From sequence record PX055572.1: DNA of 44,832 nucleotides. One strand, 5' to 3'. The notes under the pieces were generated by a model, which was not told where the DNA came from, did not search any database, and was given only the letters and a program-made list of their open reading frames with translations. Both the position numbers and the translations under genes were made by a program. Positions 3,297-42,705 of this stretch are shown piece by piece (position 1 is the stretch's first letter; every line of letters begins with the position of its first letter). This DNA comes from a phage.

Positions 3297-3322
3297 AGGC
3301 CCCGCTAGGGGCCTTAGTTTTA
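3297..3322. terminator. Bidirectional intrinsic terminator (portal / KilA-N convergent)
   Basis: AGGCCCC-gcta-GGGGCCT flanked by T-rich on + and - strands. Confidence 0.6.
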
Positions 3323-3973
3323 ACGTATATTAGCCGCACATTTACGCACAACCCGAGGTATCGCCTCTTTCAGTTCACCCCATGTATTAACGGCCTCCAT
3401 GTCAAGAAGCGTCACCAGAGCTTTCTGGATGTCACTTCGCAACTGATTGGTCTTCGCATCCTGAGAGTCCCATGTATCGAAACCCGTTACGTCGCGGATA
3501 TCTACGGATTCCTTTACCGCTTTAGCCACCTGTATGAAGTGTCCACTGTGGCCAATTCTTCCCTCCGTGCGCTCGATCATTCGACTAACGGCAGCGTTAA
3601 GCTCGACAAAGCTCACCGCGCCAATGTTTCGTAGTTCTACCTGCCGTTGTGTGATAAAGCGGTCGATAACGAGGAAATGGAAATAGGCGCTGTATTGCTC
3701 AGCAATATATACTGCCAGATGGAGACATGCAAAGGTGCGACCGTTTCGGCCTTTCGTCGCCCTTATGGCATTCTCGATTCCGAGTTGTTTTTCGCATTCC
3801 TCCTTGAAAATCTTGAAGCCATCCGTTGCCATGACCTGGCGAAGCTCTCTGGTCCCCATGCCGTTGTCTAAACGCCAACGGTTCATCTGGTCAACCAGCT
3901 CGTTTACGTTAATAAAGTTTTCACGGTCAAAAGTGATTTCTCCATAAGGGAACTCTAATGTTTGCAGTTTCAT
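3320..3973 (-). CDS. KilA-N domain protein (moron-like insert in head module)
   Basis: Reverse-strand 217-aa ORF between portal and head-morphogenesis genes; central segment GRTFACLHLAVYIAEQYSAYFHFLVI resembles KilA-N/APSES core (from memory); SD AGGAGA; own promoter with palindromic operator. Confidence 0.5.
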   Translation of the reverse strand: MKLQTLEFPYGEITFDRENFINVNELVDQMNRWRLDNGMGTRELRQVMATDGFKIFKEECEKQLGIENAIRATKGRNGRTFACLHLAVYIAEQYSAYFHFLVIDRFITQRQVELRNIGAVSFVELNAAVSRMIERTEGRIGHSGHFIQVAKAVKESVDIRDVTGFDTWDSQDAKTNQLRSDIQKALVTLLDMEAVNTWGELKEAIPRVVRKCAANIR

Positions 3974-6061: not shown

Positions 6062-6159
6062 AGTTCACCATTACCCGTGTCAATTTCACCAATACCACTA
6101 CAAGCCCAAAGAAACATCACCGCATCAACTGCAATTACTACTGAAATAACGACTAACAT
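6058..6159 (-). CDS. Small hydrophobic peptide (33 aa)
   Basis: MLVVISVVIAVDAVMFLWACSGIGEIDTGNGEL; strong SD GAGGAGG 6 nt upstream; stop overlaps lipoprotein start (ATGA); downstream of promoter G. Confidence 0.35.
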   Translation of the reverse strand: MLVVISVVIAVDAVMFLWACSGIGEIDTGNGEL

Positions 6160-6186
6160 GACGGCCTCCTCGTTTCGATGTAATGA

Positions 6187-6215
6187 ATAGTACCCTATTA
6201 TATTGGTGTGTGCAA
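6187..6215 (-). promoter_or_regulatory. Promoter G: TTGCAC-N17-TACTAT with AATAG-N4-CTATT palindrome
   Basis: As transcribed: TTGCAC ACACCAATATAATAGGG TACTAT; ~28 nt upstream of small peptide/lipoprotein operon. Confidence 0.55.
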
Positions 6216-6488
6216 ACTATTTATTTACGTATTCCAGTTATTCCACCGAATTGTAAATGTTGGAATAAACTATTCGAATAGTTGACTTTTCACTGAAAAT
6301 ATGCTAAGCTCCACCTGAGCTTGTGAAGTATGAACAAGCGACCGCGGCGCGGGCAGGTAACGGAGCGGGACGTAAGTCCTGAGTGTAGTTACGCTGACGC
6401 GTTCGGAAGGGCCATACTCTATTGCTTGTGTAAAAAGTAACTGGTTTACTGAGATTACGCCGTTTCTATGTTTAAATGATAAGGACTA

Positions 6489-15188: not shown

Positions 15189-15380
15189 CTACTTCTCTTT
15201 CACGTTCGAGTTGCAAGCCCAGATTAAAATGAATACCCACGGCAACAGAATCCACCCGAGAAATAAGTTAGCCATGAATATCGCCAGCTTTGCTTTATGG
15301 TTACGCATATGTGCCACCAAAAACGGGATAAAATAAACGGCTACAAAAATAATTAAGAAGAACATAGTGATACCGGTCAT
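15189..15380 (-). CDS. Small two-TM membrane protein, superinfection-immunity (Imm)-like
   Basis: MTGITMFFLIIFVAVYFIPFLVAHMRNHKAKLAIFMANLFLGWILLPWVFILIWA; start at internal ATG with SD AGGAG 7 nt upstream; LLGW...WxxxLxWA pattern resembles superinfection-immunity family (from memory). Confidence 0.45.
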   Translation of the reverse strand: MTGITMFFLIIFVAVYFIPFLVAHMRNHKAKLAIFMANLFLGWILLPWVFILIWACNSNVKEK

Positions 15381-15422
15381 AACATAACTCCTGATTTGAG
15401 ATAACATCGTTGGTGTAAGTGA

Positions 15423-15451
15423 ATAGTACGCTATTATATTGGGGAGTGCAA
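15423..15451 (-). promoter_or_regulatory. Promoter H: TTGCAC-N17-TACTAT with AATAG-N4-CTATT palindrome
   Basis: As transcribed: TTGCAC TCCCCAATATAATAGCG TACTAT; ~40 nt upstream of Imm-like gene. Confidence 0.55.
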
Positions 15452-15558
15452 GTAGTGTGCTAGAATAATTTTGCGCCTAGTGTCGCACACGAAAAGCGGG
15501 TGGTTCCCGTCTGGCGCATTTCCTTTAACCAGTAACCTCTTAACCAAAGGATTAAAGA

Positions 15559-25693: not shown

Positions 25694-26205
25694 CTGGTAA
25701 ATTTCCTCGCAAGATACGTTATTTCTTCTTCACAAAGTTCATCGAGGTCGTTAGATACAAATCCTCTGGTGAATGTTTTGCTGAACTTTAAGCCCGCTTT
25801 ATCACTGTCACCGGCGCACACCCATTCATACGGCAAAAGTGACATTTGCTGCCGTAAGTCAGCTGGTATGTTCGACCCCAATGCGCTAACTGCATTAAAC
25901 CCGCAATTCATCAAAGCAACAGCTTTAAATATGCTTTCGGTAACAAATACCACCCCGCTACTTGGCAAATACTCAAGTCCCCATAAACACGGCCTTGTTG
26001 TTCGGGTAAAGTACCGCGCGTCTTTAGGGTTTTTACAGTTCTTTTCAGCATGCGGCTTGTAATGCTGGTATCCTCGTAGCCTGCCGTCAAAACCCCACAA
26101 GTAGAATGTAGCAACGCCAGGGGCTAAGACTACCTGGAGACGGTCTGCGTCAAAACCTCGTGACAGCAGATGCGCCTTAAGTAGAAACTCTTCGAAATCC
26201 ATCAT
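25690..26205 (-). CDS. Toprim-domain protein (primase-associated)
   Basis: Conserved Glu (VFVTESIF) and DxD (CAGDSDKAG) spaced as in Toprim folds; 171 aa. Confidence 0.45.
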   Translation of the reverse strand: MMDFEEFLLKAHLLSRGFDADRLQVVLAPGVATFYLWGFDGRLRGYQHYKPHAEKNCKNPKDARYFTRTTRPCLWGLEYLPSSGVVFVTESIFKAVALMNCGFNAVSALGSNIPADLRQQMSLLPYEWVCAGDSDKAGLKFSKTFTRGFVSNDLDELCEEEITYLARKFTR

Positions 26206-27626
26206 TTCTTACTCCTACGTTTCATATAATTAAGTAGTTCATCCTGTACAGACCTTTTCTCGTCGGTACGCGCGGCGACAACCTCGTCCAGAGTGTCTTT
26301 AGCAACGATGTGATAAAGGAACACCGGGCGCTCGTGACCCGCCTGTTTCTGGCGGACTGGGCCTATGCGCTCAACAACCTGCAAATAGTGCTCAAGGTTC
26401 CAGCCTTGCGAGATGAACGCCAGATGATGACCCCCGTCCTGTAAATTCAAACCATGCCCGGCTGACGCAGGATGCACGCATAAAATCTCGATTTCCCCAC
26501 GGTTCCACGCTTCCATCTGCTTGTTCCCCTTAGCGCCTTTGGCGAACGCCTGTGCCTGTGGGAATCGCTTAAGGATACGCTCCAGTTCGTGTTTAAACTG
26601 ATAGGCTACCAGCAACGGCGCACCCTGCAACTCCTCAACAATCGACTCGAGCGCATCCAGTTTCGTGTCGTGCACTTTCTCCCAGTCTTTGGTCGCTTCG
26701 CCATCCGGCCCTGACACATACACGGCACCAGATGCAATCTGCAAGCACTTTGAGGTCTTCGCCGCAGCGTTAGCCGCTTCAACTTCCCCGCTCTCCAGTT
26801 CTGCGAATAACTTCTCCTCCATATCTATGTACGCCTGACGCGCTTTCTTCGGCAGGTCGATTTCCACCGGTACGATAACAGGCGCTTCACAACCGAACCA
26901 CTCGGCGGCGTCAATCGTCAGACTGATGTCCTTCATCTTCTGGTGAATCTCGTTATCTGCACCAGGGCGGGCGTGATATTCACGTGCCATCGCAGATTTT
27001 CCTTTCTGTACCGAATTAAACCAGCGGTCGGTGAATGCTGTATACGACGAACCTAGGCGCTCGCCAGCGTCGATAAACCAGTTCTGGCCCCACAAATCCT
27101 TGAGGCCGTTTGGTGACGGTGTACCAGTCAGGTTAATAAAACGCTTAACCCTTCCGAAAGCCACTTTACTAAGCGCCTTTGCACGCTTGCTACCACCTGA
27201 ACGGCTGCGGAATGATTTAAGCTTCGTGCTTTCATCTGCAACGATAACCGTAAAAGGCCAGTCGTCTTTGCCGTAGTAGTCAATCAGCCACTCGATAACC
27301 TCATAGTTCGTGCAAACCACGTTAGCATCTGACTCCAGCGCTGCGATGCGGCGCTTCTCCGAACCAGTTGCATCTACGACACGCAGACAAGGGAATTGCC
27401 ATTTCTCTTGTTCAGCGGGCCACGTACCGGACGCAACACGTAACGGGGCAAGGATTAACACGCGGTCCTCTTCCGTAAGCTGCCCGTTGCGGAACAGGCG
27501 GTTGAGCACCCACATAGTGGAGGAGGTTTTACCTCCCCCCATTCCGCACCATATATTACAGCGCGGGTGTTGCAGCATAAACGAAGTCATGAGCTTCTGG
27601 TATTCGCGCCTTTGAAACTTACTCAT
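26202..27626 (-). CDS. SNF2/DEAD-like superfamily 2 helicase
   Basis: Walker A GMGGGKT, DEAD-like box IVADEST, C-terminal helicase motifs; 474 aa. Confidence 0.75.
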   Translation of the reverse strand: MSKFQRREYQKLMTSFMLQHPRCNIWCGMGGGKTSSTMWVLNRLFRNGQLTEEDRVLILAPLRVASGTWPAEQEKWQFPCLRVVDATGSEKRRIAALESDANVVCTNYEVIEWLIDYYGKDDWPFTVIVADESTKLKSFRSRSGGSKRAKALSKVAFGRVKRFINLTGTPSPNGLKDLWGQNWFIDAGERLGSSYTAFTDRWFNSVQKGKSAMAREYHARPGADNEIHQKMKDISLTIDAAEWFGCEAPVIVPVEIDLPKKARQAYIDMEEKLFAELESGEVEAANAAAKTSKCLQIASGAVYVSGPDGEATKDWEKVHDTKLDALESIVEELQGAPLLVAYQFKHELERILKRFPQAQAFAKGAKGNKQMEAWNRGEIEILCVHPASAGHGLNLQDGGHHLAFISQGWNLEHYLQVVERIGPVRQKQAGHERPVFLYHIVAKDTLDEVVAARTDEKRSVQDELLNYMKRRSKK

Positions 27627-28578
27627 TTACCGCCCCCATGAATGCCTTTATAAATTCAGCGGCTACTTGCGGGACGATGGCATTGCCGTAACCGCGCAAT
27701 CGTCCCACTCTGGCGGGTATCCCATTAGCCAGCGGGAATGTGCTGGGTTCAACTGGCCGGAACTTTCCATCCCTGCATCCGAGCCAGTCAGCATCTGACC
27801 AGAAGCTGTGATGCGGGTCGGCTTCGCCACCGGCGGTAAGTCGCTGTTGTCTGTTAGTTGCGCTATGGCCTGCGTTTGCAGATGCGTAGCCCGATGCATC
27901 GGCCTCCCACTGGTTCGGGGTGTCGCAAACACCCCGTCCATTGCCTTCGGCGTTTGCCACGCCGCCATCAAACCCTGTTCCGTAGCATAATCCAGACGGT
28001 CGAAGGTTCTGTCCTTCCCATCCTTGCGTATCACTGTCACCCCGCTGCCTTTGAAGTCGTTCGCTGTCGGTGTAGGCCAATTGGTGTGCGCCAAAGAACA
28101 GTCTGTCGCGTTTGTGCGGTGCGCCGACGCTACAAGCTGGGAGTACGGCAAACCCGACGGCGTAGTCTTCTCCTTCCAGGTGAGTTTGTAAATCGCACAT
28201 CCACGATTTTGCAATTGCTGGCGCAACCTGTTCCCCAAAGAGGACTGGAGGGTGGCACTCGCTGATGAGGTCGAGGAACACAGGTGCGAGGTGTCTCGGG
28301 TCGAACTGTCCGAGTTGCTTTCCTGCCGCGCTAAACGGTTGGCAAGGCGGGCTTCCCGTCCAGATAGGCGTATCTTCCGAAACTCCCGCAAGTCTGAGCG
28401 CGAGAGGCCAGCCGCCGATACCAGCGAAAAAATGACACTGGGTGAACCCGTCGAGGTCTTCTGGCTTAACTTCGGTAATGCTTCTTTCATCTACAACTCC
28501 AAAAGGTATATGACCCTGTTTTATTAGTTCACGCAGCCACGCGGCTGCGCCTTTATCCCATTCGTTGTAATAGTTCAT
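27619..28578 (-). CDS. DNA (cytosine-5)-methyltransferase
   Basis: Motif I FAGIGG, motif IV catalytic PCQ (SPPCQPFS), motif VI-like GEQV, motif VIII RDR, C-terminal [10 protein letters not shown]; 319 aa with Gly/Asn-rich variable region. Confidence 0.75.
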
Positions 28579-28766
28579 TTCGCCACCAGAACTAACTCTT
28601 TACGCCCGAATGCCGTAACGTTACCGGTTACATCTTCGATAACCAGTTTACCGTTTGACTCGACGAATACCGTATCAACGGCAACAGGGCGGCGGGTCTT
28701 AACGTTGAAAATCATGTCGCCCGGTACGATGTCACGTGCTGGTTTGCGGTCGTATTCGTGTTTCAT
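28575..28766 (-). CDS. Hypothetical protein (63 aa)
   Basis: SD AAGGAA upstream; directly downstream of promoter A; coupled to methyltransferase gene. Confidence 0.45.
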   Translation of the reverse strand: MKHEYDRKPARDIVPGDMIFNVKTRRPVAVDTVFVESNGKLVIEDVTGNVTAFGRKELVLVAK

Positions 28767-28796: not shown

Positions 28797-29084
28797 CTAA
28801 CTATAATAGTTCGCTATTAGGGTGTCAACCTGTTTGAACGAACCAACTACAAAAACATTTGCACCACGCTTACGCATCCGCTCGTGCTCTCGTAACTGGT
28901 GCGGGTCAGGCTTCGTGCTTTCGTCTTTCTTCACCTCGACGAACCAGACGATGCCGCCAGGGAGAATTACCAGCAGGTCGGGAGCGCCGGAACGCCCCTC
29001 ATACACTATCTTACGAACGAGGCCACCAATGGCCTCGAATCGGTCTTTTGCGTATTTCTGTATTTTGCCCTCAGGCGTACTCAT
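28797..29084 (-). CDS. VRR-NUC domain nuclease
   Basis: PD-(D/E)xK-type core GAPDLLVILPGGIVWFVEVKK; ATG 29084 with SD GAGGGG (ORF track starts at upstream GTG). Confidence 0.6.
   Translation of the reverse strand: MSTPEGKIQKYAKDRFEAIGGLVRKIVYEGRSGAPDLLVILPGGIVWFVEVKKDESTKPDPHQLREHERMRKRGANVFVVGSFKQVDTLIANYYS
28800..28828 (-). promoter_or_regulatory. Promoter A: TTGACA-N17-TATAGT with palindrome in spacer
   Basis: As transcribed: TTGACA CCCTAATAGCGAACTAT TATAGT; between VRR-NUC gene and ORF 28575..28766. Confidence 0.6.
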
Positions 29085-32487: not shown

Positions 32488-32516
32488 ACTATAATAGCTA
32501 ACTATTCAGGTGTCAA
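32488..32516 (-). promoter_or_regulatory. Promoter B: TTGACA-N17-TATAGT with palindrome in spacer
   Basis: As transcribed: TTGACA CCTGAATAGTTAGCTAT TATAGT; upstream of SSB-like gene. Confidence 0.6.
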
Positions 32517-34960: not shown

Positions 34961-35188
34961 TTACTCACCGTCGCCTTCAGTAAGGCTATCGTCTATTAGT
35001 TCAAATTTACCGTTTGAGTGTTGAATAGCTTCTTGCCCGCAATGGTCACAGACAACAAGTTTATCGAACCCATCAAACTCATCCCCTACTACGCAAGAAA
35101 GTACAAATTTATGTTTTGTGCACACTTCTTGCGGAGCGCCGAAAATTGCTCGAAAACCTTTAGCTATGGCCCCAGTGATTGTGTTCAT
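34961..35188 (-). CDS. Small Cys-rich (zinc-ribbon-like) protein
   Basis: CxxxxxxxxC...CDHC pattern; 75 aa; first gene downstream of promoter C. Confidence 0.4.
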   Translation of the reverse strand: MNTITGAIAKGFRAIFGAPQEVCTKHKFVLSCVVGDEFDGFDKLVVCDHCGQEAIQHSNGKFELIDDSLTEGDGE

Positions 35189-35216
35189 ATCTGCCCCTCT
35201 CGTTTGGTATGGGCTA

Positions 35217-35245
35217 ACTATAATAGCGAACTATTCACATGTCAA
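35217..35245 (-). promoter_or_regulatory. Promoter C: TTGACA-N17-TATAGT with palindrome in spacer
   Basis: As transcribed: TTGACA TGTGAATAGTTCGCTAT TATAGT; in divergent region facing Cro-like gene. Confidence 0.6.
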
Positions 35246-35289
35246 TGGGCTTTTCTAAAATAATTAATATGGTACTATTCACATATCAA
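35234..35289 (+). promoter_or_regulatory. Candidate rightward promoter and operator-like half-palindrome for Cro-like gene
   Basis: TTCACA (35234-35239)-N16-TAAAAT (35256-35261) overlapping promoter C; downstream element GGTACTATTCACATATCAA (35271-35289) resembles the palindrome. Confidence 0.35.
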
Positions 35290-35309
35290 CTGACTAAGGA
35301 GTAACTGAC

Positions 35310-35525
35310 ATGCAACCATCTGAACTAGGCACCCGTGTAGAACAACGCCGTAAAGAACTCGGCATCTCCCAGCGCCGTTTGGCGGTCCTGACCGGCGTTT
35401 CCCAGGGCGCAATTAACCAGCTGGCTCTCGGTGTAACTCAGGACGTCCGCCCGGCAACGTTGTTTAAACTGGCGGAAGTGCTGGAAGTAGACGCTAAGTG
35501 GCTGGCGTTCGGTGAAGGGGCTTGA
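35310..35525 (+). CDS. HTH XRE-family transcriptional regulator (Cro-like)
   Basis: ISQRRLAVLTGVSQGAINQL helix-turn-helix; 71 aa; SD AAGGAG; divergent from replication operon; followed by terminator. Confidence 0.65.
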   Translation: MQPSELGTRVEQRRKELGISQRRLAVLTGVSQGAINQLALGVTQDVRPATLFKLAEVLEVDAKWLAFGEGA

Positions 35526-35542
35526 CGCCCCTTTCTTTTTAT
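35515..35542 (+). terminator. Intrinsic terminator after Cro-like gene
   Basis: GGGGC-ttgac-GCCCC then TTTCTTTTTATT; overlaps the stop codon. Confidence 0.6.
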
Positions 35543-35736
35543 TGCACCTTTATCGGGTATCTTTTGCGAAACTTACCTAACCCGCAGTACACGCTGTAAG
35601 CCTCTGTGTAACTGAACACAACATGATACCCGCGCCCATAAGGAACTACGTTAAGAACTTCTACTACTTCGCCTCTGTGGTTGGTGTATTTATTACCTTT
35701 CAGTTCGTCGCTTACTTCTTTAAATTTACCGCTCAT
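35539..35736 (-). CDS. Hypothetical protein
   Basis: 65 aa, coupled to primase-helicase stop. Confidence 0.35.
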   Translation of the reverse strand: MSGKFKEVSDELKGNKYTNHRGEVVEVLNVVPYGRGYHVVFSYTEAYSVYCGLGKFRKRYPIKVQ

Positions 35737-38018
35737 TCCAAATCCTCCTCTGTCACTGTCAACATTTCATTCGGTTCGTATATTGTCTTTGGAATCTTGT
35801 TATCAGTTATTCTGGTGTTCAGCCTGTAACGACCTGGGATTATCTGATTGTTTTCGTCAGTACCCGGAACAAGATACCCGGCCTCAACCATTTTCTTAAT
35901 CTTCCCGCGTTCTATGGCTTCTTTGGAGTTAAACGCCTTTGCGTTGGGGTCTGACTGTGCGAGCTTATTCGCCGCGGCGACTGTGATGCCTTCGTTGCCG
36001 TTGTAGGTTCCTTCCGCCAGTTCAAACGCCGCGAGTATCGTGGCCTCCGAACTGTTGACGGCGTTCTCTACGGTTTTACGTACATTTTCTTTACCTTCTT
36101 TCGTCAACCCTTCTTCCCGCTCTTTCTCCTCGTCAGTTTTGAACGGCTCGAAACCCCACGGCATCAACACAAGCGCCTTGTGTGGTTCAGGCAGGTCCAG
36201 GTTTACGATTGTGCCGTATTCCTCTGTGCTACCCGGGAACTCAACCGCTCGGTATTCTTTAGGCGGCGGCGCTTCACGGAACTGTACCGACTCCAGCACC
36301 ATGCCAACCGTCTTCTGCTGAGGCCCGTGCTTGAATTTCGAGTGATATACGTTTATCTGACGGTCGGTTGCACGTTCGATTGTCAGTTCCACGTCAACAC
36401 CCGCATACAGCGCCCCACTGCCGCGTGCTTTCTTTCCACCCTTCGGCGTATGGTGGACAACGCCTACTGCGGCTTTAGTTGCATCGCGTACTTCTTTCAG
36501 AATGGCGATAACTTTACCCATGCCGATTGCTGTTGATGAACTGTTCTCGTCGAACTTATCAATCGTCAGGGCCAGCGTCTGGTTAAGGGTGTCGAAGGCA
36601 ACCATGCCAATAGGTTCATCCCCTGCGGTTTCGCGCATCCTGCGGATTAGAGCTGGAATTTTTTTATCACCATGCGTAGCGAGTATTTCGCCCATATCGA
36701 TGACATGTACATAATCTTTACCTTCCTCGCCATATTTAGCCGCGAGTGCATCAATACGTGTTCGTGTAGCTGCACCACCCTCGCCGTCAATATAGAAATG
36801 GTAGCAACGTTGGGTGTCAGCCCCCGCAAACCGGTACCCGGCGGCGCTCAGGTACATCATCCCCAGCGTATAGAATGATTTGTACGTGCCGGATTCCCCG
36901 ACAATATCCCAGATACAATCCGACGGCATGTACCCCTCAACGACGAAATCAGCCTTTACCGGTTCTGGTAACTCGTCCTCCTCTGAGTCCTCGTCGTCTT
37001 CCAGGTCGTCGAGGCTGCATGAGACAGATTCACGCGCCCCCCAACCGATGGCCTCTGCGACTTCACTGAACGGCAGCCCGGTCGCATCGCACGCGTACTT
37101 CCACACCTCTTTCGGTGACAGGCCTTCTGTCGCCGTAATGTCTGTGTCGTGAATCATGGTTACGTTTGGCGCTTCATACCCCTCGCGCGGGAAGCACAGC
37201 AGGAAGTCGTCCGGGCGCGGTGCCGGGGCGCTGTAGTTTTCGGCATGTTCCGGTGTGGCTGGCATCTTAAGGCCGCGCGGCGTCATGACGCCGCCGTACT
37301 CAAACGCCAGTGCTTCAAACGCGTCTGTAAACGCGGTGCGCAGTTCTTCCGGTATCTGGTAATCCGATGCGCTGCTAACGTCAACGGCGGGGATGCCTTC
37401 CAGTAACTCGTTCGGGTCGATCAGGTCGTTGCGGCGCGACCAGATAACGGTAGCGCCGACCGGCGGCAGGTACATCGGCTGCGACAGAGTGAACCCGCTG
37501 CGGTCCGCACCCATGCCTTTGAAGAAGTGCTCCAGCAACCCATGACGAACACGGATGATGTCACCACCCTCCACCGGACGGGCCAGTGGCATTACGACGC
37601 GAAAGCGCGGTGACTCATCAGTATGTGATGCCGTGGTATAGAGGCACATGGCCCAGCGGCTGCGCTTAACCAGGCGCACCGCTTCCTGATACTCTTCCGG
37701 TGTTGTGCTGTCGAAATCCAGATAGGCCAGCGACGATTTGCTTACAGACGCATCGCAGCGGTAGAAAAAACCTTTACGCGCTTGCTTAAAGTCTCCAGTT
37801 TCCGGGTCTTTTACGGTGCTGTGCGTTGAGTCGCACGCGGCGGTGATATAACCGGGCGCGGTCTTAGGGTTAATCCCGTCGCGAACGGCATCGAGCGGCT
37901 GGATTAACTCTTTCAGGTCGTCCAGTGTTGCCGTGTGTGCGGTTCTGACATTTATATCCTTTTTTCCCGCCCGCGCGTTGCGGCGTGACCACGAGTAGGA
38001 TAAAATTACATCGGACAT
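35733..38018 (-). CDS. Bifunctional primase-polymerase (AEP-like) / RecA-fold helicase
   Basis: N-terminal LAYLDFD (DxD) and SH motifs of prim-pol type; central Walker A GESGTYKS and Walker B-like MVAFDTL; C-terminus ends EEDLE; 761 aa. Confidence 0.7.
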   Translation of the reverse strand: MSDVILSYSWSRRNARAGKKDINVRTAHTATLDDLKELIQPLDAVRDGINPKTAPGYITAACDSTHSTVKDPETGDFKQARKGFFYRCDASVSKSSLAYLDFDSTTPEEYQEAVRLVKRSRWAMCLYTTASHTDESPRFRVVMPLARPVEGGDIIRVRHGLLEHFFKGMGADRSGFTLSQPMYLPPVGATVIWSRRNDLIDPNELLEGIPAVDVSSASDYQIPEELRTAFTDAFEALAFEYGGVMTPRGLKMPATPEHAENYSAPAPRPDDFLLCFPREGYEAPNVTMIHDTDITATEGLSPKEVWKYACDATGLPFSEVAEAIGWGARESVSCSLDDLEDDEDSEEDELPEPVKADFVVEGYMPSDCIWDIVGESGTYKSFYTLGMMYLSAAGYRFAGADTQRCYHFYIDGEGGAATRTRIDALAAKYGEEGKDYVHVIDMGEILATHGDKKIPALIRRMRETAGDEPIGMVAFDTLNQTLALTIDKFDENSSSTAIGMGKVIAILKEVRDATKAAVGVVHHTPKGGKKARGSGALYAGVDVELTIERATDRQINVYHSKFKHGPQQKTVGMVLESVQFREAPPPKEYRAVEFPGSTEEYGTIVNLDLPEPHKALVLMPWGFEPFKTDEEKEREEGLTKEGKENVRKTVENAVNSSEATILAAFELAEGTYNGNEGITVAAANKLAQSDPNAKAFNSKEAIERGKIKKMVEAGYLVPGTDENNQIIPGRYRLNTRITDNKIPKTIYEPNEMLTVTEEDLE

Positions 38019-38075: not shown

Positions 38076-38309
38076 TTATTCCAGGTCTTCTACAGTAGCG
38101 GTCATTCCGCGAACTTCAGCAACTGCGCTATATTTCCCACCAACATTTTTCACGACACCATATTTAACCAGTACCTTCAACGACCCTTCAATAATGGCGG
38201 AACTATAGTACTTAAAATAACTACGGCGCAAGTCCATAACGCTGCACGACCCTTTTTTACGTGTTAATGAAACGACTGCCGTAAATACGCGTGACTGGAA
38301 CTCGGTCAT
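38076..38309 (-). CDS. Small protein, ends in EDLE
   Basis: 77 aa; C-terminus TVEDLE matches the EDLE tails of the exonuclease and primase-helicase. Confidence 0.4.
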   Translation of the reverse strand: MTEFQSRVFTAVVSLTRKKGSCSVMDLRRSYFKYYSSAIIEGSLKVLVKYGVVKNVGGKYSAVAEVRGMTATVEDLE

Positions 38310-38476
38310 TTTACATTCTCCTTAATCCACGCTTCCACTTTCTCCCGGTCAAACGTACCTGGCTGACGGCGGCCCATAATGCGGATACAACAATCCGGGA
38401 ACTTCCCACTCTTTAACCAGTTATTCAGCGTGCGACGGGTAACCCCGATACGCTCAGCTACCTCATTCTGTGTCAT
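38306..38476 (-). CDS. AlpA-like HTH DNA-binding regulator
   Basis: MTQNEVAERIGVTRRTLNNWLKSGKFP... resembles AlpA/excisionase-type HTH (from memory); first ATG downstream of - strand promoter TTGATT-N17-TATACT; ORF track starts at TTG 38503. Confidence 0.5.
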   Translation of the reverse strand: MTQNEVAERIGVTRRTLNNWLKSGKFPDCCIRIMGRRQPGTFDREKVEAWIKENVK

Positions 38477-38508
38477 CCTCAAGCCCCCATTATCAGTTAA
38501 CAAAATCG

Positions 38509-38537
38509 AGTATACATTGTGAATAATGGGAAATCAA
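38509..38537 (-). promoter_or_regulatory. Leftward promoter TTGATT-N17-TATACT for AlpA-like gene and replication operon
   Basis: -35 (rev) 38532-38537, -10 (rev) 38509-38514, spacer 17. Confidence 0.5.
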
Positions 38538-38712
38538 ACATAATCGCACCTATTGACATTATGAAAATCTTCGTTTAAGGTGCTTTTATATCTTAGTTAC
38601 TTTGATTCTTGTTCACCTTGTAATACCCGCTTGAAACGCAGCGGCGCACCAGCGCCAGCGAAGTGTTAAGCGGCAGATTACTGAACATATGAATTATCGT
38701 AACTTTCCTTCC

Positions 38713-38775
38713 TAAGTATCTCAGGTTGCCCTGGGCAAGCTCTATTCTCATCGACGGCATATCTCTTAAGTATCT
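38713..38775. repeat. Direct repeats TAAGTATCT (x2) in divergent intergenic region
   Basis: cctAAGTATCTcagg at 38713-38721 and cttAAGTATCTgata at 38767-38775. Confidence 0.3.
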
Positions 38776-38813
38776 GATAATTAAAAGTTTCTATAGTTGC
38801 CGTGAGCAATGTT

Positions 38814-38870
38814 GAGAGTACTTCACTCCGCTGGGGTGGGCTAAAGCCCACCCGCTGCGTTGCGTACTCT
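38814..38870 (+). other. Composite stem-loop in divergent intergenic region
   Basis: Outer stem AGAGTAC/GTACTCT enclosing GGGTGGGC-taaa-GCCCACCC; followed by TTTTAAG; no ORF. Confidence 0.35.
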
Positions 38871-38912
38871 TTTAAGAAACGAAAGAATCACAACGGCAAC
38901 GTAACTATTCTC

Positions 38913-38941
38913 TTGCACACCCCAACATAATAGGTTACTAT
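38913..38941 (+). promoter_or_regulatory. Promoter D: TTGCAC-N17-TACTAT with AATAG-N4-CTATT palindrome
   Basis: TTGCAC ACCCCAACATAATAGGT TACTAT; 35 nt upstream of ATG 38976. Confidence 0.55.
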
Positions 38942-38975
38942 TCACTTATAGAAACGAGACAGAGGAGTGAGGGTT

Positions 38976-39164
38976 ATGTTTAAACGCGGTCAGTTGGTGA
39001 AAACAGCATATGGCTTTGGTGTTGTCGGAAAAGAGTCTGTCGTATACCCAGGGTCTTATATCATCCGTTATATCAGGCGGGACGGATTAACTCCTTCGGT
39101 TTATTACGAAGCTAATGAGTTAAAACTCATCGGCAACAATTTTAAATTCAAAGGGGCGAAGTGA
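38976..39164 (+). CDS. Small hypothetical protein
   Basis: ATG 38976 with SD AGAGGAG 8 nt upstream; first gene downstream of promoter D. Confidence 0.45.
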   Translation: MFKRGQLVKTAYGFGVVGKESVVYPGSYIIRYIRRDGLTPSVYYEANELKLIGNNFKFKGAK

Positions 39165-39892: not shown

Positions 39893-40039
39893 TGTTCAAT
39901 AGTTTGGGATTTTACTGAGTGACTTACGCTGCTACACAGCAGCGTATCATTTTTCTCATTTTTGTTCTATTTCACCAAACGCAACAATCGAAGCGACTAT
40001 TGCAGGAGATGCAATAATACAAACACCAATAAAATTTAC

Positions 40040-40068
40040 TTGCACACTGGGATAGAATAGGCTACTAT
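40040..40068 (+). promoter_or_regulatory. Promoter E: TTGCAC-N17-TACTAT with AATAG-N4-CTATT palindrome
   Basis: TTGCAC ACTGGGATAGAATAGGC TACTAT; 32 nt upstream of ATG 40100. Confidence 0.55.
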
Positions 40069-40099
40069 TCATTTACACAAACGAGAGGAGAGACAGAAG

Positions 40100-40447
40100 A
40101 TGAGTAACAAAAACGAAGTATTCGAGTACCTGATTGACCAACTACGGCAGCAGGTAAACAGCAACCAGTGCGAAGACCTGGTGCATGAAGTGCAGTCACT
40201 TAAGAATCAGTTACGTGATGCTTCGGCGCTGGTGGCGGAGTTGCAGGAAGAACTGGGTGCTTCAACTAACACCGTAGTTCGTTTGCGCAAAGAGGTAGCT
40301 AAGTATACTGGTGACACTGGAGAATATATCGACGCCACTGAGCAATCTGGTTGCAGTAAAGATGATACCAGGGAATGTGAGCACGATTGGTACTGGTACT
40401 CCGGTTCCAAGGAACGTATATGCCGTAAATGCGGGGAAGAGAAATGA
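40100..40447 (+). CDS. Coiled-coil protein with C-terminal Cys pairs
   Basis: 115 aa; SD GAGAGGAG; downstream of promoter E; C-terminal CEHD...CRKC. Confidence 0.45.
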   Translation: MSNKNEVFEYLIDQLRQQVNSNQCEDLVHEVQSLKNQLRDASALVAELQEELGASTNTVVRLRKEVAKYTGDTGEYIDATEQSGCSKDDTRECEHDWYWYSGSKERICRKCGEEK

Positions 40448-42656: not shown

Positions 42657-42676
42657 CTATTTTCTGTAATGACTAG

Positions 42677-42705
42677 TTGACTATTACCTACGACCCTATT
42701 ATATT
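42677..42705 (+). promoter_or_regulatory. Promoter F: TTGACT-N17-TATATT
   Basis: Located after the lysozyme terminator, 34 nt upstream of ATG 42739. Confidence 0.5.

Follow-up and report, generated by a model that had tools for sequence, protein, structure and literature searches.

In the phage DNA of sequence record PX055572.1 (44,832 nucleotides, analysed over its full length and hereafter called the window), an intergenic region of 121 bp at positions 35189-35309 separates a leftward gene for a 75-residue protein (34961-35188) from a rightward gene for a 71-residue Cro-like protein (35310-35525), and it carries two copies of a 14-bp dyad, AATAG-N4-CTATT, that recurs at promoters throughout the window. 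We see an even chance that the 71-residue protein is an orphan repressor of the phage 434 Cro type, which would bind these dyads, turn down the early and replication promoters, and regulate its own synthesis. A broader proposal, put forward with somewhat less than even confidence, is that the genera Kagunavirus and Jerseyvirus both run their temporal programme with one orphan Cro, the operator having spread from the cro/replication region to nearly every sigma-70 promoter, and a mismatched operator serving as the extended -10 element of the Cro promoter. The components, namely a Cro-type repressor, dyad operators and sigma-70 promoters, are all known; what is new is the arrangement, in which a virulent phage has an orphan Cro, the dyads are spread over the genome in three registers, and a mismatch in a putative operator doubles as an extended -10. 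The region around 35189-35309 is 92-96% identical to Kagunavirus phages including phiEc4, Golestan and K1G (118 matching records), and the window can thus be placed in Kagunavirus (subfamily Guernseyvirinae), as a virulent siphovirus of E. coli with about 96% identity to phiEc4 and Golestan and with a gene order common to the annotated Golestan genome and to the Jerseyvirus SETP3. The replication genes form a long block read leftward (~38.5 kb to 25.7 kb), which encodes a helicase-primase, a PD-(D/E)XK exonuclease, an Enc34-type single-stranded DNA-binding protein (SSB), a family A DNA polymerase, a resolvase, a methylase and an SNF2 helicase, and is broken by one small rightward gene, which is labelled 'CRO', 'transcriptional repressor' or 'HTH protein' in the relatives.

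This sole rightward gene inside the block (35310-35525, + strand) encodes a single-domain protein of the XRE/HTH_3 type. Its Pfam HTH_3 match covers residues 11-65 (E=2.3e-12; 47 bits, the cut-off being 23), it also matches PHROG transcriptional repressor families, and its best match in the PDB is phage 434 Cro (E=1.3e-6, residues 6-68), with which it shares a length of 71 residues and an end-to-end alignment. As in other single-domain Cro repressors, which measure ~65-75 residues, neither a C-terminal dimerisation domain nor an S24 peptidase domain follows. A homologue with 44% identity in Klebsiella phage RothD is Cro by position, being divergent from CI and followed by CII and the replication genes, and the CI/Cro intergenic region of RothD holds 434-type 14-bp operators, ACAA-N6-TTGT; together with the 434 Cro match, this positional Cro makes the name 'Cro-like' a fair one. 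The gene is under purifying selection (ratio of nonsynonymous to synonymous polymorphism, pN/pS, of 0.13-0.25 against Kagunavirus-like relatives), and the identity of its orthologues falls from 93-99% in Kagunavirus to 78-82% in a divergent clade, ~49% in Jerseyvirus and ~42% in SE1-like Guernseyvirinae. The Cro-like gene named in the initial annotation, which had been made from the letters of the window, is genuine. It is preceded by the Shine-Dalgarno sequence AAGGAG (35296-35301, + strand), conserved in Kagunavirus, Jerseyvirus and SE1-like phages, and its monocistronic transcript is predicted to end at an intrinsic terminator (35514-35534, + strand) consisting of an 8-bp stem with 5 GC pairs and then CTTTTTATTG; the SETP3 annotation shows the same arrangement of Cro gene and terminator. 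Because the T-run is present on the plus strand only, leftward transcripts of the helicase-primase operon may run antisense through the Cro gene.

Promoters were sought by a consensus scan for sigma-70-like hexamers, each match being scored out of 12. Promoter C (35217-35245, - strand) has a -35 element TTGACA at 35245-35240, a 17-nt spacer and a -10 element TATAGT at 35222-35217 (11/12; predicted start ~35210), and is placed so that it would drive the gene at 34961-35188 (- strand), the first downstream and of unassigned function (phrog_32657; no Pfam match), and the replication genes beyond. Only three sites in the whole window reach 11/12, all of them leftward TTGACA-17-TATAGT promoters in the replication block (35245>35217, 32516>32488 and 28828>28800), and the two hexamers of promoter C are invariant in 33 distinct Kagunavirus intergenic sequences; the leftward promoter into the replication genes that had been annotated initially is thereby borne out. 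The rightward promoter annotated as overlapping it, TTCACA(35234)-16-TAAAAT(35261) at 35234-35261 on the + strand, does score 10/12 and does overlap promoter C by 12 bp, but it is poorly conserved: among the 33 sequences its -35 varies and a 1-nt indel shifts its spacing, and in the divergent clade its -10 becomes AAAAAT, so that this candidate is probably secondary or fortuitous. We take as the Cro promoter an extended -10 element, TGgTACTAT (35270-35278, + strand), with a weak -35 (TTTTCT/CTTTTC), because it is conserved in Kagunavirus and in the divergent clade while the TTCACA and TAAAAT hexamers vary or vanish, and because SETP3 has TTGCAC-17-TACTAT at the homologous position. Its predicted start at ~35285 would leave a leader of ~25 nt. 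With predicted starts at ~35210 leftward and at ~35268 or ~35285 rightward, the promoters stand back to back and diverge, contrary to the face-to-face geometry originally described. The sole element facing the Cro promoter is a weak leftward promoter-like site, TTGATA-18-AATTAT (35260-35289, - strand; 9/12), which is part of a 25-nt direct repeat, and the corresponding hexamers are not promoter-like in SETP3 and not conserved in Jerseyvirus. The number of promoter-like matches between 33000 and 38000 (4, against 4.1 expected by chance, with three of the four inside 35189-35309) proves nothing, since it equals the chance level; the support comes from match quality, position and conservation.

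The two dyads lie among these promoter elements. O1 is a perfect copy, AATAGCGAACTATT (35222-35235), situated in the spacer and at the -10 edge of promoter C, with its centre at about -18.5 from the promoter C start and at about -56 from the Cro promoter start. O2 (35266-35279) is an imperfect copy, AATATGGTACTATT, agreeing at 9/10 arm positions and lying on the -10 of the Cro promoter, where its G>T mismatch plus the next G makes the TG of the extended -10. A palindrome-like element had been assigned to 35271-35289 in the Cro-like leader; this segment is not itself a dyad, being the right-hand part of the 25-nt direct repeat (35221-35245 and 35265-35289, 84% identical), the core of which is the 14-bp dyad, and both the coordinates and the nature of the element are accordingly revised to those of O2. 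The distance from O1 to O2, centre to centre, is 44 bp, and 43 bp in the divergent clade. Within the 33 Kagunavirus sequences the arms of O1, the whole of O2 and the Shine-Dalgarno sequence are as invariant as the hexamers of promoter C, variation being found in two places, the N4 of O1 and the 3 nt between O1 and TTGACA, where an indel also occurs. O2 is likewise kept in the 78-82% clade as AATATGCTACTATT, in which the TAAAAT -10 is gone, and is degenerate in Jerseyvirus, ATTACTGTACTATT. Two other candidate operators at this locus were rejected. The palindrome ATTCACATGTCAAT is made up of a pair of adjoining -35 hexamers, and between relatives its centre shifts with the indel; the variation in the N4 of O1 and in the 3 nt between O1 and TTGACA destroys this palindrome and weakens the -35 of the rightward candidate. 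The 16-nt core of the direct repeat, ACTATTCACATNTCAA, has 5 loose matches against 1.08 expected, and its CACATNTCAA part is not conserved in Jerseyvirus.

The initial annotation had also referred to other palindrome-bearing promoters, and such a family indeed exists. In the window AATAG-N4-CTATT occurs at 10 sites (7 exact, 3 with one mismatch), all on promoter-like elements, against 1.05 expected, a count reached by none of 100 shuffles, and no other 5-N4-5 palindrome comes near its frequency, whether in the window, in Golestan (8 exact) or in SETP3 (5 exact). The sites fall into three classes. In class 1 (28805, 32493 and 35222) the dyad lies in the spacer of TTGACA-17-TATAGT, with its centre at about -18.5; besides O1, these are the dyads at 32493-32506 (promoter 32516>32488), upstream of the genes for the Enc34-type SSB and DNA polymerase, and at 28805-28818 (promoter 28828>28800), upstream of 28575-28766 and of the methylase and helicase genes. 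In class 2 the dyad lies on the -10 of TTGCAC-17-TACTAT, with its centre at about -12.5 and a conserved leader, AAACGAG..GGAG; it is found at 38929-38942 (promoter 38913-38941, + strand), ahead of the rightward early genes, at 40056-40069 (promoter 40040-40068, + strand), at 15422-15435 (promoter 15451>15423, - strand), ahead of an operon for superinfection immunity (Imm_superinfect Pfam match), exonuclease and PNK, and at 6186-6199 (promoter 6215>6187, - strand). In class 3 an imperfect dyad encloses the -35 of a rightward promoter, TTGACT, with its centre at about -33.5: AATAGTTGACTTTT at 6277-6290, with TTGACT-17-TAAGCT (6282-6310), which precedes the Rz and head genes, and ACTAGTTGACTATT at 42672-42685, with TTGACT-17-TATATT (42677-42705), which precedes the nin-like and terminase genes. 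With three registers, the dyad is evidently not tied to the hexamers, though every copy lies inside the footprint of RNA polymerase. Over 162 distinct Kagunavirus-like and 51 Jerseyvirus sites, the arms hold ~2 bits per position, a value that partly reflects how the sites were selected, the central N4 ~0-1 bit, and the flanks little. As a separate observation, the class-2 promoters (6141-6244, 15377-15480, 38884-38987 and 40011-40114) are similar over ~60 bp into the leader (TACTATTCAyTTAcA..AAACGAG..GGAG) and look as if promoter and leader had been duplicated together as a module; read in the reverse orientation, each contains a weak TTKNNN-16-TATTAT as well, so that bidirectional activity is possible for some.

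The AATAG-N4-CTATT motif is already in the literature under the heading of PHIRE 'phage promoters' (consensus tgAATAGTa-ccTATTat-T), in fBC-Eco01 and, with seven copies, in Golestan, and one of the two Kagunavirus papers ascribes it to a phage-encoded RNA polymerase (PMC9825357, PMC7203180). No phage RNA polymerase gene is present in the Golestan and SETP3 annotations or among the scanned open reading frames (ORFs) of the window, and the motif overlaps sigma-70 hexamers in three registers; the label is wrong. In an SE1-like genome AATAG-N4-CTATT is not enriched, the equivalent of promoter C having only a relic with 2 mismatches, and no alternative enriched palindrome was found there with arms of 5 or 6 nt and spacers of 0-10; a shared spacer element, GGATTAnTnAnGTAT, is only marginally enriched (6 against 2.2 expected). 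A scan of viral contigs for TGAATAGTNNNCTATTAT gave, among the matches listed, Kagunavirus-type contigs and one unrelated repeat protein, and no multi-copy contig proved to be a different phage, some of the multi-copy contigs not having been cross-checked. Upstream of distant Cro-like homologues, TAAAG-N4-CTTTA occurs in L054-56, which is anecdotal only. An Rfam scan of the intergenic and noncoding regions returned nothing relevant to the Cro locus.

The absence of a repressor or integrase partner, asserted in the initial annotation, is borne out. Pfam and PHROG scans of 45 ORFs of the window found no CI/S24 repressor, integrase or recombinase, the annotations of Golestan and SETP3 contain no integrase, recombinase, S24 or CI-like protein, and papers on close relatives report no lysogeny genes and describe the phages as virulent (PMC9825357, PMC7203180). 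Taken together, these findings argue for a virulent lifestyle. The divergent neighbour of the Cro-like gene is the 75-residue protein of unassigned function, followed by replication genes, and is not a gene for a CI-type repressor; the three adjacent graded operators of the PRM/PR type are likewise not present, there being two dyads only at this locus. One repressor without an antagonist would make a shut-off timer and not a bistable switch, and the suggestion made from the start, that the Cro-like protein acts as a timing regulator, fits this single partnerless gene better than a switch does.

In the proposed mechanism, Cro is transcribed alone from its extended -10 promoter, transcription ending at its own terminator, while the divergent promoter C would restart leftward transcription into the replication genes. 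The Cro-like protein is presumed to bind the 14-bp dyad as a dimer, and a dimer on O1, between the -35 and -10 of promoter C, would exclude RNA polymerase and so turn this promoter down. As the dimers accumulate, the same may happen at seven other promoters with the dyad on spacer, -10 or -35, so that the remaining replication promoters, of class 1, and the early ones, of class 2, would be turned down as well. At a higher protein concentration the weaker O2 on the -10 of the Cro promoter would become occupied, capping the synthesis of the protein itself. The outcome would be a timer based on negative feedback, by which early and replication transcription is closed down in the course of infection, in the way that lambda or 434 Cro acts in lytic growth.

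Several features favour the Cro-like protein as the binder of the dyads. Two of them bracket the promoter of its own gene, and the dyad has the 14-bp 5-N4-5 layout of the 434 operators. In the 434 complexes, Gln28 reads base 1, Gln29 bases 2-3 and Gln33 bases 4-5 of the half-site. When aligned with 434 Cro, the Cro-like protein has the same residues at the positions of Gln28 and Gln33, with Gly in place of Gln29 (Ser in Jerseyvirus), and the half-site AATAG differs from ACAAG of 434 only at positions 2-3; we regard this correspondence as a lead and not as a test. Among the recognised DNA-binding proteins, the Cro-like and NinH-like proteins are both present in every dyad-bearing genome examined, including the contigs L036 and L007. 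Other observations weigh against this assignment. SE1-like loci keep a 42%-identical Cro-like protein with a recognition helix, TQSAISHL, that closely resembles SQSLITHL of Jerseyvirus, yet have no enriched dyad, and conversely the half-sites of Kagunavirus and Jerseyvirus are identical though their Cro-like proteins are 49% identical and differ at 4/6 recognition-helix positions. The HTH_17 protein described below is 82% identical between the window and SETP3. The degenerate dyad at the Jerseyvirus Cro promoter means that autoregulation is not general, and a protein repressing nearly all promoters, two late ones among them through imperfect sites, would leave the activation of the late genes unexplained.

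The dyads might instead be operators of another factor, such as this HTH_17 protein, another phage protein or a host regulator, with the Cro-like protein acting locally elsewhere or being unrelated to them; we consider this unlikely, though it is the main rival of an orphan Cro as the binder. The recognisable DNA-binding proteins of the window besides the Cro-like one are the second small helix-turn-helix (HTH) protein, of 65 residues and HTH_17/excisionase-like (38306-38503, - strand; Pfam HTH_17, E=5e-8), which heads the leftward early operon, a NinH-like protein, and a weak KilA-N match. Dyad enrichment and HTH_17 co-occur, Kagunavirus and Jerseyvirus having both and all Cro-bearing SE1-like loci neither, and the greater identity of HTH_17 than of the Cro-like protein between the two genera is as expected for a protein constrained by ~10 sites; its own promoter (38537>38509) carries no dyad. 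In the RNA-seq paper on K1B4, the only Kagunavirus transcriptome and one of coarse timing, an HTH-domain gene is among only four early genes, and genes labelled 'specific DNA binding' and 'AAA domain' are middle; we would map these genes to HTH_17, Cro-like and helicase-primase. Set against this, the Kagunavirus contigs L036 and L007 have lost HTH_17 yet keep exact dyads (6 in 20 kb and 3 in 11 kb), at a synonymous divergence in cro of 0.20 between L036 and the window, which weakens HTH_17 as the sole binder. In L036 (12559-13270), and in L007, the HTH_17 gene and its promoter are swapped for genes of a 47-residue CxxC..CxxC zinc-ribbon protein and a 149-residue protein, with a different palindrome at their promoter, 8-bp arms TTGAAGTACC-N8-GGGTACTTCAA, and the replacement looks like a swapped regulator-operator module; the same region of L036 holds a copy of the class-3 promoter sequence TTGACTTTTCACTGAAAATATGCTAAGCT of the window (6282-6310). 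Moreover, class-1 promoters, with their 17-nt spacers, already match the sigma-70 consensus and have no need of a spacer activator of the MerR type, and it would be counterproductive for a protein made early to repress the replication promoters. A 63-residue protein (28575-28766) was rejected as the binder, because its 97% cross-genus identity matches that of a recombined block including the helicase (97%), and it has no DNA-binding signature. As to a host factor, we know of no E. coli or Salmonella operator that matches the dyad, and the multi-copy dyad seems confined to this phage lineage (among the matches listed), which is a weak argument against a general host-factor site.

It is improbable that the dyad is an intrinsic feature of the promoters, in the form of overlapping -10-like hexamers, bidirectional promoters or a duplicated promoter module, and not an operator at all. 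The half-sites do resemble -10 hexamers (CTATTAT / TACTAT), the class-2 -10 is made from a half-site, several dyads (6186, 15422, 38929) lie between divergent genes, the ~60-bp similarity of the class-2 sites is what duplicated modules would leave, and the PHIRE-based papers name the motif a promoter. Such a feature would, on the other hand, hardly take three different registers relative to -35 and -10, and the distal half-site of class 1 is invariant though it lies in the spacer, where sigma-70 promoters impose no sequence requirement. The N4 is variable with both arms fixed, as for the site of a dimer; SE1-like phages have homologous promoters without the dyad; and no phage RNA polymerase gene is annotated or detected that might read the motif as a promoter. 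Even less probable, in our judgement, is that the Cro-like protein is directed at operators of the host or of a resident prophage, silencing prophage defences, for example, or interfering with related phages. Its membership of the XRE family, its kinship with proteins from the immunity regions of lambdoid phages and its persistence in SE1-like phages without the dyad could suit such a role; no target was identified, and two dyads at its own promoter, together with a self-terminated monocistronic unit that is maintained from genus to genus, speak for a regulatory role inside the phage. A reading as a restriction-modification C protein or an antitoxin was rejected, there being no partner gene.

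An orphan Cro of the kind favoured here is worth comparing with the regulatory systems that it resembles. Like 434 Cro and RothD Cro, the protein is a single XRE HTH domain of 71 residues (39-44% identity over the full length), and as with 434 Cro its candidate operator is a 14-bp 5-N4-5 site, copies of which overlap divergent promoters at its own locus, the expected effect being a lytic turn-down of early transcription. Unlike those systems, the window is without a divergent cI, cII or integrase gene; the locus has two dyads 44 bp apart in place of three tandem operators; the Cro-like gene, instead of heading the early-right operon, is monocistronic and antisense in the replication block; and there are ~10 dyads genome-wide as against two operator clusters, with the half-site AATAG instead of ACAAG and with binding that is here a prediction. 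The lambda CI/Cro switch has in common with the present locus divergent promoters that share an operator region beside a Cro-type gene; it differs in having a second repressor, lysogeny functions and tripartite operators, and an autoregulated single repressor would give a timer and not bistability. A likeness to the convergent switches of P2 and 186 lies in the convergence of the Cro-like gene with the helicase-primase operon, the transcripts of which probably run antisense through it, so that interference is possible; here, however, the promoters are divergent, and the nearest conserved facing promoter (38537>38509) is ~3.2 kb off. The 'phage-specific promoters' found with PHIRE in the Kagunavirus phages fBC-Eco01 and Golestan are the same repeated motif, and the difference is one of reading, the dyad being taken here as an operator over host sigma-70 promoters in phages that encode no RNA polymerase. 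C proteins of restriction-modification systems and the antitoxins HigA and HipB are also small HTH_3 proteins with dyads at their own promoters, and HipB and HigA are weak PDB matches of the Cro-like protein; in contrast to them, it has no co-transcribed nuclease or toxin, and the cytosine methylase gene lies 7 kb away in another transcription unit.

The arrangement of the gene in the wider subfamily suggests how an orphan Cro might have arisen. In SE1-like relatives (L004, Salmonella phage SE1, 4112-7303; L049-L051) the Cro-like gene comes first in an operon, followed by a hypothetical gene and helicase/primase; this operon is divergent from the other replication genes, a lambda-like cro-replication layout. 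In the window the gene is not the head of an early operon, being monocistronic, with its own terminator and no cI: in Kagunavirus and Jerseyvirus the helicase-primase block is inverted relative to the SE1-like one and headed by HTH_17, and cro is left alone with its terminator. The simplest reading would be an ancestral local Cro control region, the operator of which later spread to other promoters in the Kagunavirus/Jerseyvirus lineage.

Some further features of the window concern its mosaic history and its noncoding regions. The helicase-primase (35733-38018, - strand) is 33% identical to that of Golestan, 58% to that of SETP3 and 95% to that of L036, and the SNF2 helicase with the adjoining 63-residue gene (26202-28766, - strand) is 97% identical to Jerseyvirus SETP3, a strong mosaicism that points to recent gene exchange between genera. 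An ORF at 3320-3973 (- strand, 217 residues), which Golestan lacks, gives the weak KilA-N match mentioned above (E=3e-4) and shares 76% identity with a gene that the SETP3 annotation calls an amidase; SETP3 also has an anti-repressor gene of the Ant/KilAC type. With these two genes a virulent lineage has kept additional remnants of the regulatory modules of temperate phages. Positions 15470-15534 (+ strand), located between the tail assembly chaperone gene and the dyad promoter at 15422, match the Rfam int-alpA RNA (RF02996) at 36.6 bits, against a gathering score of 35.8; a match is also present in Golestan, and not in SETP3 or SE1 at the gathering score. The int-alpA RNA normally lies near integrase or alpA genes, and here it is found in a virulent phage. 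A noncoding region of 463 bp (38504-38966) separates the leftward early operon from the early genes that are read rightward. It is flanked by the divergent promoter-like sites TTGATT-17-TATACT (38537>38509) and TTGACA-17-TAAGGT (~38555-38583, + strand), both conserved in SETP3, and shows a conserved core with a pair of 12-nt direct repeats, TCYTAAGTATCT (38710 and 38764), and a perfect hairpin at 38834-38853. No Rfam family matches it, and it might be a replication origin or specify a noncoding RNA.

Kagunavirus and Jerseyvirus phages are often isolated for therapy and biocontrol and serve as small engineering chassis, and their transcription programme is essentially unstudied, the sole repeated regulatory motif reported for them having been misassigned to a non-existent phage RNA polymerase. 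For safety annotation, the labels 'Cro' and 'repressor' in these genomes are no sign of temperate potential. If the orphan Cro proposed here is true, a small protein and a 14-bp site would explain the turn-down of early and replication transcription in a virulent phage that uses host RNA polymerase only, and would provide a compact, portable repressor-operator pair. It would also mean that a component of a lysogeny switch has been retained, and its regulon expanded, after the temperate lifestyle was lost.

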